Shown: positions 5,368 to 22,626 of the stretch, piece by piece
How the letters are laid out: each line of letters starts with the position of its first letter
How positions within the stretch are numbered: the first letter of the stretch is position 1
Sequence record: PZ445527.1
Source: a phage
DNA length: 64,000 bases
Strand: one strand, 5' to 3'
The notes under the pieces: model-generated
Told to the model about the DNA's origin: nothing
The model's database searches: none
What the model saw: the letters and a program-made list of their open reading frames with translations, nothing else
Translations under genes and position numbers: made by a program

Positions 5368-5907
5368 TTACTTGTTAAGCTCTTCTAAATCTGGTATATA
5401 TCCAAGAAACTCCTCAATTAAAGCGTACTCCCCAGCAATCTCCTGTCTAGACTTATTCGCTAAGTCTACTGCCAGAGCTAAGTCTTCATAATTGAAGGTT
5501 CCTTTCATACGTTTTCGGCCTGTTTCATCCGTAATTTGAACTCTCCATTTCTGCCTATCTTTAGCCCACATAACATTTGCATATCCAGATTTGGACTTTC
5601 TATGCTTCTTATTACGACAATTTTGTGGTTTAGATGCAGAACGTAAGTTTTTCCATCGGTTATTTTGTGGATTTCTATCTATGTGATCCACAAATTCAGG
5701 TATATATCCTTCCATATATAGGAAGGCCCATCTATGGGCTCCCTGCCTCTCCCCTTCCACCATTATCATTATGTAATCATTGTTATATAGAGTTCCAGCT
5801 TCCATTCCCCTCTTTACATACTGATTATTACCATCTATCTTCCAGGTAAATATCCCGGTTTCTGGATTATATTCTAGTAATTCTTTTAGTCTTTCTTGAG
5901 TGATCAC
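5368..5907 (-). CDS. HNH homing endonuclease (MITQERLKEL family, copy 1)
   Basis: GTG start. HNH_3-like DHIDRNPQNNRWKNLR followed by an AP2-like DNA-binding half. Paralogous to 29152..29694 and 55085..55615. Confidence 0.8.
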   Translation of the reverse strand: MITQERLKELLEYNPETGIFTWKIDGNNQYVKRGMEAGTLYNNDYIMIMVEGERQGAHRWAFLYMEGYIPEFVDHIDRNPQNNRWKNLRSASKPQNCRNKKHRKSKSGYANVMWAKDRQKWRVQITDETGRKRMKGTFNYEDLALAVDLANKSRQEIAGEYALIEEFLGYIPDLEELNK

Positions 5908-6308
5908 AATTTATTAATGGCCTCTAAGAAGTTTTTCATGCACTTAACAGTTGCGGTGCTGAGGTCTAGAGTAGTTCCTAAACATTCTGTTAATGCTGCC
6001 TGGTAAGGCGCTTTTAAACGCCCTTCAGGGACTTCTACCTTTTTGTAGGTTTTATTCTTTACTTTATCTAGCATAGCTTCAAGAACATTGAGAGGCAACT
6101 TCGCACCCTCAATATTCACACCAAGCATTTCGGTCAGCATGTTATTAAGATCAATACGAGTAAGTTTCTTGCCTTTAGACATAGTAGTTCCTGCCTTCTT
6201 CTCAAGTTTTTTACGCTCTGGTGAATCGAGGTCACGTAATGCGATGTTCAACTCATATGGAGCCATGTTATAATGTTCCGCCATTTGAGTGTAGAAACGA
6301 TCAGACAT
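5904..6308 (-). CDS. hypothetical protein (134 aa)
   Basis: First ORF after promoter 6342..6370, with RBS AAGAGAGG. Confidence 0.6.
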   Translation of the reverse strand: MSDRFYTQMAEHYNMAPYELNIALRDLDSPERKKLEKKAGTTMSKGKKLTRIDLNNMLTEMLGVNIEGAKLPLNVLEAMLDKVKNKTYKKVEVPEGRLKAPYQAALTECLGTTLDLSTATVKCMKNFLEAINKL

Positions 6309-16236: not shown

Positions 16237-16313
16237 TGGGGTGGCTAGTGGAACTCGAATCCACATAGGCCTGATTCACAATCAGGATCATTAACCAATT
16301 ATGATATAGCCAC
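16237..16313 (-). tRNA. tRNA-His(GUG)
   Basis: Clean cloverleaf: GTGGCTA/TAGCCAC, D stem TCAT/ATGA, CCTGA-TTGTGAA-TCAGG, GTGGA-TTCGAGT-TCCAC, encoded CCA. Confidence 0.9.
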
Positions 16314-16531: not shown

Positions 16532-16679
16532 ATTGATGTATCAAGGAATAGAAGGACTTGAACCTTCATGAGTTAGACCATTTAACTCAACCGCTTTTTA
16601 GGGTATATTTCTAGGAGTGGATGTTCCTAGTAAACCTATTCGGCAGTCCCGTCTACCAATTCCGGCATATTCCAAGATT

Positions 16680-16774
16680 TGGAGGTAGGTAAGGGGATCG
16701 AACCATTACACCGTATCACTACGGTCAACCGATTTCAAGTCGGAGTCCATCGCCAGCCGTTGGATTGACCTACC
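16680..16774 (-). tRNA. tRNA-Ser(UGA), class II
   Basis: Acceptor GGTAGGT/ACCTACC, anticodon loop CTTGAAA, variable arm ACCGTA-GTGA-TACGGT, T loop TTCGATC, encoded CCA. Confidence 0.85.
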
Positions 16775-16786
16775 TTATAAATTGTT

Positions 16787-16871
16787 TGGTGGGTTAGGAG
16801 AGACTCGAACTCTCACGCACTTAAGCAAGGGCTTCTAAGACCCTCGTGGCTACCAATTACACCACTAACCC
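16787..16871 (-). tRNA. tRNA-Leu(UAG), class II
   Basis: Acceptor GGGTTAG/CTAACCC, 3-bp D stem, AGGGT-CTTAGAA-GCCCT, GAGAG-TTCGAGT-CTCTC, encoded CCA. Confidence 0.9.
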
Positions 16872-16877
16872 CTAATT

Positions 16878-16952
16878 TGGTGGACAGTAGGAGAGTCGAA
16901 CTCCTCACTCCTGAGTGCAAGTCAGGTATTTTCCCAGATAAACTAACCGCCC
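16878..16952 (-). tRNA. tRNA-Ala(UGC)
   Basis: Acceptor GGGCGGT/ACTGTCC (with G:U pairs), CCTGA-CTTGCAC-TCAGG, AGGAG-TTCGACT-CTCCT, encoded CCA. Confidence 0.9.
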
Positions 16953-17191
16953 AAATTCTTTAATTTACTAAGGCTATTAGCTCGGCGTAACTACAGCACC
17001 TTCGCTTCAAGCGGAAGGAACCGCGTCATCTCGCAAACCCAATACACTATTCAGTTGCCGCTGAATCTAGTGGACTAATCTAGAACTTCTCCCGAGTCGT
17101 AGGGATCGTGCTTTTTGGCAGCCAGTCCTAGGTCGAGCTAATACCTTAGTGAATTATGATGAGGATTTCTCCCATATCAATTTATATAAAT

Positions 17192-17220
17192 ATTATAACA
17201 AGAAATTAATCATCAAGCAA
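17192..17220 (-). promoter_or_regulatory. T5-type early promoter (TTGCTT-17-TATAAT) driving a leader RNA and the Ala-Leu-Ser tRNA cluster
   Basis: Hexamers and spacer read directly. No long ORF lies downstream, only a 9-codon mini-ORF and structured RNA. Confidence 0.75.
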
Positions 17221-17238
17221 TTGAGTTTTTCTTGAAAT

Positions 17239-17314
17239 TGGTAGCGGGTTCCAGTACTGCCCTGGACTTACTTAGCTTATGAGACTAAGAAGAACTCTAT
17301 GCCTTCCACCCGCA
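17239..17314 (-). tRNA. tRNA-Met/Ile2(CAU)
   Basis: 76 nt: acceptor (T)GCGGGT/ACCCGC(T), TTAGT-CTCATAA-GCTAA, T stem TCCAG/CTGGA with a non-canonical loop GGCAGTA, encoded CCA. Confidence 0.6.
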
Positions 17315-17320
17315 ATTGTT

Positions 17321-17445
17321 TGGTTATTCTAGACAGGATTCGAACCTGTTATCACTTGTGCGGACTTACGAGAACCATTCTTTCACTCGAATCGAACGAG
17401 CTTCTGCCCTAGCCAAGCTGGTTTCCCCATCAACCACGCTAGAAT
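17321..17445 (-). ncRNA. oversized (about 121-125 nt) tRNA-like gene with a nested extra T-arm
   Basis: Perfect acceptor ATTCTAG/CTAGAAT, D arm TGGT-10 nt-ACCA and T arm ACAGG-TTCGAAT-CCTGT enclose about 67 nt, including a second CTCG-TTCGATT-CGAG hairpin. Confidence 0.35.
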
Positions 17446-17567
17446 GTTTGATTGTTTTCAGTGCAAGAGTCCGAGTCTTGGACACGACCGTTTCGCAAGT
17501 ACATAGGCAGCTTATCATGAGTCAGCACTTCCGAATTGCTAGCCCCGTGTTCTGCACTGAAATTTTA

Positions 17568-17915
17568 TTAGTTTAACCGTAAAGTATTATCTAATTCACC
17601 ATTAATTGTTCGGCATTCCTCTGGAATTGCTGGTGTGGCCTTGTATTCCCACCACTCAGCACCATCATATTCCCCACGTTCTAGCCAAGTTCCGTCGGCA
17701 AACCATACATTACCATAAAGTAATTGTCCACCGTATCCAGAATCATACTCAAAGTCTAGGTTATCAAGAAAATCCTCAATATCTTCTTCTGTATAGCCTA
17801 AAGGTAATACCCAAACTTTTTTATCCCCATAATACCCGAATTCTATTTTAATACACTTAATTTTAGAATTGGTATTTTTTAAGGCAAGTAACAACTCTTC
17901 TTTAGCATTACGCAT
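17568..17915 (-). CDS. hypothetical protein (115 aa)
   Basis: Minus-strand ORF between tRNA genes; acidic and Trp/Tyr-rich. Confidence 0.55.
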   Translation of the reverse strand: MRNAKEELLLALKNTNSKIKCIKIEFGYYGDKKVWVLPLGYTEEDIEDFLDNLDFEYDSGYGGQLLYGNVWFADGTWLERGEYDGAEWWEYKATPAIPEECRTINGELDNTLRLN

Positions 17916-17940
17916 AGTATATTCTCATACTGAATTAATT

Positions 17941-18017
17941 TGGCGCGACTGATGGGATTTGAACCCACATTCCCTCCCGTGATAGGGGAGTACCATTACC
18001 AAGCCAGCCACGGTCGC
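17941..18017 (-). tRNA. tRNA-Asp-type with anticodon AUC (A34)
   Basis: Acceptor GCGACCG/CAGTCGC, CTCCC-CTATCAC-GGGAG, GTGGG-TTCAAAT-CCCAT, encoded CCA. The loop differs from the Asp CTGTCAC loop only at position 34. Confidence 0.7.
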
Positions 18018-18026
18018 ATAATTTAT

Positions 18027-18212
18027 TTACTCAGCTTTGAGTTTTTCAATAGCTGCATTAAGTTCTTTAAGAAACTCTTTTCGTACATTAAGACGATTGA
18101 GACTTACTAGTATATCATGTTTAAGTTCTTCGATGTATTTCTTCTCAACTTCAATATTGTTGATAGTGCTATCACGATGAACTTCTAGCTGCGCAATCAC
18201 ATTCTTGGACAT
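18027..18212 (-). CDS. hypothetical coiled-coil protein (61 aa)
   Basis: Minus-strand ORF between tRNA genes. Confidence 0.45.
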   Translation of the reverse strand: MSKNVIAQLEVHRDSTINNIEVEKKYIEELKHDILVSLNRLNVRKEFLKELNAAIEKLKAE

Positions 18213-18314
18213 GCTTGTTTCCTCAGTTATTAATGAAAATGGTATCTGTGGCTGAATTAGATGTCAGCAATGATAGCTGGTTGGCTACCGGTTTACTTAA
18301 CTCTACACAGAATT

Positions 18315-18397
18315 TGGCGGGCCGTGTAGGATTCGAACCTACGTTGTCTTTCGACACGGATTAACAATCCGCCGCCAAACCGCTTGGCTAACGACCC
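18315..18397 (-). tRNA. tRNA-Asn(GUU) with a long variable region (83 nt)
   Basis: Acceptor GGGTCGT/ACGGCCC, D arm GCCA-AGCGGTT-TGGC, GCGGA-TTGTTAA-TCCGT, 13-nt variable region GTCGAAAGACAAC, GTAGG-TTCGAAT-CCTAC, encoded CCA. Confidence 0.75.
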
Positions 18398-18552
18398 TAA
18401 AAAATTTATATTGCTGACTAGGGTTTTCACCTAGACGGAGTTAGCACCGTAGCGTGTAGCGGCATACCTCTCCAAACCGTGCCTCATCTTTCAATTACGG
18501 AGACAGTGTTCCTACGCGTGCCTGAATTGATTTAACAATTCTTTCAGCAAAT

Positions 18553-18628
18553 TGGACGACCGCATGAGGATTGAACTCACATAAAAAGGATTTGCAATCC
18601 TTCGCCTAAGCCATTCAGCCAACGGTCG
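18553..18628 (-). tRNA. tRNA-Cys(GCA)
   Basis: Acceptor CGACCGT/GCGGTCG, AAGGA-TTGCAAA-TCCTT, GTGAG-TTCAATC-CTCAT, encoded CCA. The 5' 14 nt overlap the end of ORF 18615..18806. Confidence 0.85.
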
Positions 18629-18806
18629 ATTTATCTTGTTTTTCGAGATCTTCAAACTCTAAATCATTGAAGTTCCCTAGAGTACGGGTATAGAACCCAT
18701 CCCCTGCGTCATAGCCTGATTTACCACAATCACACATTTTAAATTCGCGCAGGTGTGTGAAAACATGTTCAGAACCACAACACTTAAATCTAACTAATCG
18801 TTTCAT
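18615..18806 (-). CDS. zinc-finger protein (63 aa)
   Basis: First ORF after promoter 18835..18863, with CC...CDC cysteine pairs. The stop lies inside tRNA-Cys. Confidence 0.55.
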   Translation of the reverse strand: MKRLVRFKCCGSEHVFTHLREFKMCDCGKSGYDAGDGFYTRTLGNFNDLEFEDLEKQDKSTVG

Positions 18807-21901: not shown

Positions 21902-21976
21902 TGGCCGAGGTGACAGGATTCGAACCTGCATAAAGGAATTTAGAAGACTCCTGCCTCTCCCTTAGACTACACCCCG
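21902..21976 (-). tRNA. tRNA-Arg(UCU)
   Basis: Acceptor CGGGGTG/CACCTCG, GGAGT-CTTCTAA-ATTCC, GCAGG-TTCGAAT-CCTGT, encoded CCA. Confidence 0.85.
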
Positions 21977-22626
21977 TTTAAGTATTTTTAAGAACTCTCG
22001 TAAAAACTCTTAAAAATACAGACGATACCGGGAGAGTCATAAGTCTCACTCATTAAGTATTTCAAGACAAAATACAGTAACGTCTATTATTTTCCAGTTT
22101 AAGTCAGGGTGACTTAGTGGTTATGTCCTGCGGTATATTGAGGACTCGGTTAGGCTTGGGGTCATGACTTCCCGCCTTTTGCTGCTACTCAACAGGAGTT
22201 ATCGCGAATTACCTGTGCTATTGTGCACCATTAGTGACATCTCTCATGCCAGCATTTCCCACTTTGTGGATAGCTTGAAAAACTACTCCGATACGGAGAA
22301 AGAACTTCACTATCCTAGAATACCTTCTAAAGTTCTTCTTTAGCCTGGACATAGTTAAATCGTAATAAAACTATTCAGCAGACCGGTTGGTTAGTCTGGA
22401 ACCAACTACCGCGTGGTTTAGGCAGTGCGCAACTAACCTCGGAAGCTTTTACGTTAAAAGCACCAGTTATCCAGTTCTTACCGACCGTAGGATTCGAACC
22501 TACATCTTCCACCAGTTACGGCTTGATAATACCAATTATACTAGGACGGCAGTGTTACTACATAAGTGATTTCCACACCCCACTATTTATAAATTAGAAA
22601 AGAATTACTCTCTAATTTATGAATAT

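Follow-up and report, generated by a model that had tools for sequence, protein, structure and literature searches.

What is made from the segment that separates an early promoter from a group of alanine, leucine and serine transfer RNA (tRNA) genes in a 64,000-nucleotide (nt) stretch of phage DNA (record PZ445527.1; the whole stretch is referred to below as the window)? The segment occupies positions 16953–17191, with the minus strand as its sense strand, and the initial annotation took it to be a promoter-driven, structured non-coding RNA rather than a protein. This proposal is borne out, as the segment is, judging by its sequence, almost certainly the RNA2H gene of the T5 group, which is annotated in phages T5 and BF23. 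The best overall explanation, which we regard as probable, is that the gene gives a structured RNA that may be excised from its transcript and might have an accessory role in trans.

The window belongs to a T5-like phage (Demerecviridae), and RNA2H lies within its tRNA gene region, a dense minus-strand array at about 15.6–22.5 kb (ARAGORN and Rfam). Positions 16972–17143, the 172 nt between the ends deposited as mature in T5 and BF23, align over 172 of 172 nt both with RNA2H of T5 (AY692264, 31811–31982; 98.8% identity) and with RNA 2H of BF23 (AJ604530, 4056–4227; 95.3% identity), and the window copy scores 223 bits against an RNA2H covariance model. The BF23 tRNA-region record gives the element as a misc_RNA, "rna2H: RNA 2H", with the note 'stable RNA with unknown functions', starting 21 nt behind "promoter P13b" and ending 19 nt before tRNA-Ala; in the T5 st0 genome it is likewise a misc_RNA between P13b and tRNA-Ala, and in the window the gap from the deposited 3' end to tRNA-Ala is again 19 nt. 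The window copy differs from that of T5 by at most four substitutions and has the closing helix and the upstream P13b promoter of both phages, although the neighbours further upstream differ, being a tRNA-like remnant in the window and tRNA-Lys and tRNA-Val in T5 and BF23. Because RNA2H is annotated in both phages at these identities, the object has already been described, and what is added here is its fold, its pattern of core and arms and its distribution, not a new kind of element. A full-text literature search, mostly directed at T5, found no open-access paper that discusses RNA2H. A set of abundant 'stable RNAs' has been attributed to the T5 tRNA region for decades, yet nearly all recent annotations pass over it: in most of the more than 500 T5-like records there is either no feature at RNA2H or a spurious protein.

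The distribution of RNA2H follows that of the T5-like phages. A megablast search with positions 16600–18700 matched 481 phage records, all of them T5-like Demerecviridae with hosts in Escherichia, Salmonella, Shigella and Klebsiella, and a sensitive blastn search with the element matched 531 phage records, 425 of them at a coverage of at least 80%, all T5-like. Relatives also have a second, paralogous P13b promoter, together with its first transcribed bases, ahead of the ligase B gene, and the matches to the query in Klebsiella and Providencia were set aside as this paralogous promoter only, not RNA2H. There is no match to RNA2H by blastn among 5,426 complete E. coli genomes at an expect value (E) of up to 1, and a core-pattern scan of 185,579 bacterial and archaeal species genomes from GTDB gave 0 matches at that stringency; scans of IMG/VR and JGI metagenomes returned T5-like contigs only, plus two chance hits (L040 and L043). 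A covariance model of the RNA (R1) finds no paralogues in the window, in Klebsiella, Yersinia and Mydovirus tRNA regions or in T4, the exception being the true RNA2H of phiR2-01. One natural relative, SHSML-45, is without RNA2H, and the position of the gene falls within the deletions of two viable T5 mutants, delta29191-32442 and delta30661-38625 (PMC11464382); the RNA is dispensable on laboratory E. coli.

The 239-nt segment folds at −76.2 kcal/mol with a z-score (z) of −4.5, a value that none of 200 shuffles equals. The initial annotation had pointed to base-paired ends, with 14 pairs and one bulge, and to three inner hairpins, all of which are present in the sequence. Perfect inverted repeats of at least 10 base pairs (bp) with their arms 40–260 nt apart number 12 in the window as against 17.2 ± 4.2 in Markov-shuffled windows, so that by repeat counting alone the terminal stem is within chance, whereas the fold as a whole is exceptional. 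Reading along the minus strand, the closing helix P1 has 14 pairs (up to about 18), formed between AAGGUAUUAGCUCG (17134–17147) and CGAGCUAAUA-G-CCUU (16970–16984), with G 16974 bulged. It is followed by a nearly invariant 5' junction strand, ACCUAGGACUGGCUGCCAAAAAGCACGA (17106–17133), and by H2 (17090–17105), a variable arm that always forms a hairpin at the same base and reads UCCC-UACGACUC-GGGA here. Next come two hairpins side by side, H3 (17066–17084; UCUAG-AUUAGUCCA-CUAGA, with a 9-nt loop) and H4 (17050–17065; UUCAG-CGGCAA-CUGAA, with a 6-nt loop), and then a second conserved junction strand, UAGUGUAUYGGGUUU (17035–17049), whose single variable column is U or C. The second variable arm, H5 (16985–17034), is a long irregular hairpin of about 20 pairs with the tip CCUUC(C)GC-UUGAA-GCGAAGG, and it stacks directly on P1. 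An AU-rich single-stranded linker (16953–16969), in which there is no terminator-like site, leads from P1 to tRNA-Ala(UGC) (16878–16952; ARAGORN and Rfam), the first gene of the co-transcribed Ala-Leu-Ser group.

This model was compared with an alignment (A4) of 47 RNA2H copies, 38 of them distinct, drawn from GenBank phages, IMG/VR and metagenomes. The tested model has 50 pairs, from P1, H2, H3, H4, H5 on P1 and a candidate loop pairing. Standard pairs fill 99.0% of 1898 cells, as against 93.4% with shuffled partners and 29–43% with slid partners, and changes on both sides are seen at 12 pairs (105 cells), which 0 of 500 shuffles reach. H2 exists in three unrelated forms (16, 38 and 41 nt), each of them a hairpin on the same four base pairs, and its base changes from UCCC/GGGA to UUGC/GCAA with two compensatory pairs in seven sequences. 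H3 is paired in 100% of cells, and in SB13 and SE7 UCUAG/CUAGA is replaced by UCUGA/UCAGA, that is, by two adjacent compensated pairs (AG/CU to GA/UC). The two unrelated alleles of H5 (about 37% identity) keep the same pairing register with eight compensated pairs, including GCG/CGC to GUG/CAC at the base, and further compensations are seen within alleles in BF23, SB9, JNwz02 and SelmaRatti. H4 is paired in 98.9% of cells with no compensatory change, its top pair being broken in two sequences and its loop variable; a further helix, P2 (GCAC/GUGU), is invariant and so uninformative. At P1, 99.8% of cells are paired and 13 of the 14 pairs never vary, and because of this invariance covariation neither supports nor refutes the terminal stem. 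The initial annotation had named covariation as the check on terminal stems of this kind, and the outcome is divided: the stem of the third closed spacer, discussed below (spacer C), covaries, and P1, being invariant, is silent. We think it very probable that RNA2H is a discrete, structure-constrained non-coding RNA.

The alignment also separates a core, comprising P1, both junction strands, H3 and H4, from the two arms. When T5 is compared with five Epseptimavirus-type sequences the core is identical at 112–113 of 114 positions in four of them and at 105 of 114 in SB13, whereas in the same comparison H2 reaches only 25% identity and H5 about 37%. Flanking DNA, including tRNAs, is 76–96% identical between T5 and Stitch, and the RNA2H core exceeds several of the neighbouring tRNAs in conservation. 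The modules have been shuffled among phages: in L017 and IrmaTschudi H2 is of the T5 type and H5 of the Stitch type. Of all the results the pattern of conservation says most, since an invariant core with paired, replaceable arms looks like a functional RNA in which the core is specific and the arms are scaffold. The alternative that RNA2H is an evolutionary relic or selfish passenger, either a tRNA-like gene in decay or what is left of a mobile element, which hitch-hikes without function, would suit a region that is a mosaic of homing endonucleases, tRNA-like RNAs and remnants, and would suit equally the shuffling of modules and the dispensability of the RNA. It is nevertheless quite improbable, as the helices are kept by compensation, replaced arms retain their register, the core outdoes those tRNAs in conservation and the gene has a strong promoter of its own. 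Features of a tRNA are also missing: neither ARAGORN nor the Rfam tRNA model (E up to 10) finds a cloverleaf, T-arm or NCCA in 16953–17191, and the RNA2H 3' end reads ...AGCC, followed by U in the DNA.

Within the core, the invariant GGACUGG (17128–17122) has two mutually exclusive partners, the loop of H3 and AGUUCUAG (17088–17080) on the 5' side of H3; both pairings are kept in 99–100%, and compensatory changes occur in neither. The pseudoknot between GGACUGG and UUAGUCC of the H3 loop is retained as a weak candidate (100% kept, two one-sided consistent changes, none compensatory), and in its full 7-bp form it is sterically doubtful because of the one-nucleotide linkers. The minimum-free-energy helix CUAGGACU/AGUUCUAG excludes H3 and is kept in 99%, with one pair lost in the two phages whose H3 is repaired by compensation. 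As neither GGACU pairing is backed by compensation, a conformational switch between H3 and the CUAGGACU/AGUUCUAG helix is possible, and the core of P1 and the junction strands might then alternate between the H3 hairpin and the long-range GGACU pairing.

The promoter reported in the initial annotation, TTGCTT-17-TATAAT at 17220–17192, aligns to and is identical with the annotated P13b of T5 and BF23. It is an early sigma-70 promoter on the minus strand, with its −35 element at 17220–17215, a 17-nt spacer and its −10 element at 17197–17192; a generic sigma-70 scanner does not list it because TTGCTT matches TTGACA at only three of six positions. We take transcription to start at A 17185, by analogy with T5 early promoters. 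The 5' leader of 38 nt (17148–17185) contains a hairpin (17178–17158) that reads GAUGAGGA-GAAA-UCCUCAUC in relatives and is disturbed in the window by a 1-nt indel, so that its fold here is weak (z = −0.5). Within this leader hairpin lies the mini open reading frame (ORF) to which the initial annotation drew attention; its nine codons are present at 17175–17146 on the minus strand, but they are an accident of the 1-nt indel, which falls within a short rearranged leader stretch specific to this window. Compared with T5, BF23 and Stitch, the mini-ORF is not conserved: its ATG frame and peptide differ and it has no Shine-Dalgarno sequence. In four relatives (L031 at 625–735, and L049, L051 and L052) a folded insert of about 85–90 nt replaces the loop of the leader hairpin; it shows one compensatory change, from GAUAUCAG/CUGAUAUC to GAUACCAG/CUGGUAUC, and is a further exchangeable RNA module ahead of RNA2H.

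A coding function, in which either this 9-codon ORF or the hypothetical proteins annotated over the match in many records are real, is extremely improbable. There is no ORF of at least 30 amino acids on either strand of the RNA2H stretch, the alleles differ in length by 1, 23 and 26 nt, none of them a multiple of three, the substitutions follow the pattern of a paired RNA, and the frame of the mini-ORF varies among phages. RNA2H acts as RNA, and nothing conserved is translated from it. As to its treatment in the databases, automatic pipelines often put a 'hypothetical protein' over RNA2H, frequently on the opposite strand; one ORF beside it is labelled 'Rho-associated coiled-coil kinase 2', and records that use T5 as reference seldom carry over the misc_RNA features.

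The leader position, the complex junction with invariant unpaired strands and the two exclusive pairings of GGACU might together suggest a regulatory leader, that is, a riboswitch, attenuator or leader peptide that controls the downstream tRNAs through the mini-ORF or a ligand. We consider this very improbable: there are no minus-strand terminator-like sites in 16953–17191, there is no sequestered ribosome-binding site after RNA2H, the mini-ORF is neither conserved nor preceded by a Shine-Dalgarno sequence, and the downstream gene varies among phages. Nor is there a match to a riboswitch or to any other family in Rfam 15 (4227 models) at gathering score, or anything credible at E up to 10, whether the search covers the 64 kb, 8.5 kb or a 246-nt stretch alone. 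The families left unmatched include 6S, Y RNA/YrlA, self-cleaving ribozymes, tmRNA, RNase P RNA and GOLLD/ROOL, and the permissive search gave only noise, namely snoZ105 at 16 bits, a plant-virus pseudoknot at 13 bits and HIV SL3 at 16 bits.

How would the RNA be released? RNA2H, an independently folding RNA of about 172–180 nt, lies behind P13b, a strong early promoter for host RNA polymerase, and we propose that it would be cut from the primary transcript and accumulate since its ends are locked in P1; on balance the sequence leads us to favour excision in this form. The deposited ends, a 5' U at 17143 and a 3' C at 16972, both fall within the extended P1 and are staggered by two pairs on the 3' side. 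Such a stagger would correspond to the cut geometry of ribonuclease (RNase) III, but the ends would fit equally well if RNase P or RNase E made the 5' end, RNase P cleaved at tRNA-Ala and exonucleolytic trimming from the 3' side halted at ...GCC. P1 and the base of H5 would stack coaxially over 13 bp, with GCC at the 3' side, and RNase P or RNase E could then cut on the 5' side; RNase P would in any case have to cut at tRNA-Ala, 19 nt downstream of RNA2H. By analogy RNA2H resembles the RNase III stalks of ribosomal RNA operons and of T7 early messenger RNA sites, in which a long helix is formed from sequences that flank a structured RNA, although P1 is short and bulged by comparison and the RNA2H ends could also be explained by RNase P or RNase E with exonuclease trimming.

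For the role of the RNA we tentatively prefer an accessory function in trans, which we rank above that of a cis-acting leader because it best accounts for a core that does not vary beside arms that are exchanged yet stay paired in every case. In this model the invariant core would be a recognition surface for a protein or nuclease, in host take-over or counter-defence, and the arms would serve as scaffold. According to the cis-acting alternative RNA2H is an operon leader or insulator, and the released RNA is a stable by-product without a role of its own: the folded block would shield the 5' end from decay, leave Rho no place to load along the long untranslated RNA, prevent misfolding of the neighbouring tRNAs and present sites for RNase III, RNase P or RNase E. 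This agrees with the position of RNA2H, which in every case follows its own promoter immediately and opens a transcript that is untranslated or carries tRNAs, with the stacking of P1 on H5 beside the AU-rich linker and the 5' end of tRNA-Ala, and with the nature of the inter-tRNA stretches here, each of which is a folded RNA or else a short ORF with its ribosome-binding site; moreover, no trans target is known and RNA2H is dispensable. However, mere structural buffering does not call for 98–99% identity in junction strands that are unpaired when the arms are free to drift, and the other T5 promoters of the region are without such a block. The initial annotation placed the RNA ahead of the Ala-Leu-Ser tRNAs, which is its position in the window, but it is not tied to them: in the relatives L050, L052, L017 and L029 RNA2H is kept and an ORF, not a tRNA, comes next. 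We regard the cis-acting leader as possible, though rather unlikely.

Several points weigh against the explanation that we prefer, that of an excised RNA with a role in trans. The status of RNA2H as a 'stable RNA' and its mature ends are taken from the depositors' GenBank annotation, and the pairing of P1 is supported by thermodynamics and by those deposited ends alone. The diversity of the alignment is shallow, since there are effectively two or three recombining alleles per arm, and many of the counted cells therefore descend from few independent events; the invariance of the core could be due in part to a recent common ancestor, or to conserved blocks having recombined with one another. The role in trans is drawn from the conservation pattern alone, with no partner, target or phenotype known, and, the tRNA-Lys fragment apart, no fragment of the deleted T5 region affected the PARIS defence (PMC11464382).

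A more specific form of the trans-acting role, which at present we consider unlikely, is that RNA2H is a counter-defence or take-over RNA that neutralises a specific host protein or nuclease through its invariant core. Recent work, including work on T5 tRNAs, has shown that tRNA clusters of phages act in counter-defence, in relation to PARIS, retron Eco7 and Schlafen nucleases, and this makes the non-tRNA RNAs within such clusters obvious candidates. If this were true, RNA2H would matter only in natural hosts that have the target factor; its strict conservation would then be reconciled with its being dispensable in laboratory strains, and the other closed spacers described below and the other T5 stable RNAs would constitute a phage toolkit of protein-targeting RNAs in tRNA arrays. 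The covariation-backed fold, the mutable core and the natural arm swaps and losses make the question directly testable.

T5 and BF23 have seven further annotated non-tRNA RNAs, RNAI, RNAIII, RNAIV and RNAX being described as 'stable RNA' and RNA1, RNA2 and RNA3 as 'tRNA-like RNA'; all of these except RNAIV, and in the case of RNAX most of it, are also in the window. They share with RNA2H their niche, the design with paired ends and a function that is not known, but by the covariance model RNA2H is not homologous to them. The terminal GCCA/ACCA of RNAI and RNA3 resembles that of a tRNA acceptor and RNA1, RNA2 and RNA3 keep T-arm-like parts, unlike RNA2H, and among the annotated non-tRNA RNAs of T5 and BF23 only RNA2H has its own promoter directly upstream. 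The closest analogues elsewhere, as small RNAs of a phage tRNA cluster, are RNAC (species 1, 139 nt) and RNAD (species 2, 119 nt) of T4, small stable RNAs that are co-transcribed with tRNAs and whose roles are not known (PMC3014915, PMC9697503). T4 RNAC folds at a comparable z of −4.6, but the RNA2H covariance model finds no match to rnaC or rnaD in the T4 tRNA region and the folds differ too. RNAC has a canonical T-arm, CCGGGUUCGAAUCCCGG, and is tRNA-derived, which RNA2H is not; furthermore, RNAC and RNAD lie at the 3' end of their cluster and are classed as late, whereas RNA2H heads an early transcript. GOLLD and ROOL are large, ornate, structured non-coding RNAs associated with phages and found near tRNA genes; they are several-fold larger than RNA2H and, as noted above, gave no match in the Rfam search.

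The initial annotation saw the same closed-end design at two further places, and it is present there as described, with UUUCAGUGCA/UGCACUGAAA at 17562–17553/17465–17456 and UUGCUGA/UCAGCAA at 18550–18544/18417–18411. Spacer B (17456–17562, minus strand) is a closed module of 107 nt that is unannotated in T5 and BF23, where it corresponds to the BF23 gap at 5826–5946. It is 91–99% identical in 220 T5-like records and folds at z = −2.7; its conservation begins exactly at the stem, what lies upstream varies (an ORF, tRNA-Lys or tRNA-Arg), and RNA2 always follows. Spacer C (18411–18550, minus strand), a structured and unannotated stretch of about 140 nt between tRNA-Cys and tRNA-Asn, is found also in Sugarlandvirus, in phiR2-01 and in the unrelated Mydovirus phages (Vequintavirinae), always inside a tRNA array; copies are at 2501–2631 of L044, 2501–2643 of L045, 2501–2643 of L046 and 1501–1602 of L053. 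It has an invariant core, CGCGUAGG ... GGUAUGCCGCUACACGCUACGG ... CUAAC, and a consensus fold in which 11 of 39 predicted pairs have compensatory changes. Its terminal stem occurs as UUGCUGA/UCAGCAA, UUACUGA/UCAGUAA and UGUCUA/UAGACA, and there is no Rfam match to spacer C. In BIS47 a 73-amino-acid 'DNA ligase' coding sequence is called on the opposite strand over spacer C, and in BF23 the corresponding gap holds ORF trn 2.8 instead.

Spacers B and C are real, separate structured modules that are not homologous to RNA2H. The sole match of the RNA2H covariance model in the window is RNA2H itself, with neither spacer matched, so the three closed spacers share a design and not an ancestry; they also differ in distribution. 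The proposal of a family of excised spacer RNAs can therefore be kept in part: given the seven additional non-tRNA RNAs in the T5 and BF23 records it is a fair description of a class, but the covariance model gives no common descent.

Several other features of the array are worth recording. Just upstream of P13b, at 17228–17322 on the minus strand, the sequence GCGGGUG...CCAGG-GCAGUAC-CUGG-A-ACCCGC-UACCA combines an acceptor-like stem, a T-arm-like hairpin and an encoded CCA. It receives no tRNA call, folds at z = −0.8 and is probably a degenerate tRNA; at this position T5 and BF23 have tRNA-Lys and tRNA-Val, with RNAIV further up. No perfect inverted repeat of its class in the window is longer than the one of 14 bp at 16309–16322/16415–16428. 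With it the closing stem of RNAIII reaches on one side the 3' end of RNAI and on the other the opening bases of tRNA-His, so that maturation of RNAIII, RNAI and tRNA-His may be coupled.

Positions 21977–22606 (minus strand), upstream of tRNA-Arg (21902–21976), are a 97.5% homologue of positions 155–784 of BF23 RNAX, a 784-nt 'stable RNA with unknown functions', and contain a weak match to the tRNA model (22479–22550, 35.5 bits). A large stable RNA beside a tRNA recalls RNAs of the GOLLD/ROOL type by analogy, though it is without an Rfam match. Finally, tRNA-Asp (17941–18017, minus strand) has the anticodon AUC, with A34, in place of the GUC of T5 and BF23, together with two linked changes in the acceptor stem. 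A tRNA-Asp with A34 is unusual, and it could reflect either evasion of an anticodon nuclease or a decaying gene.

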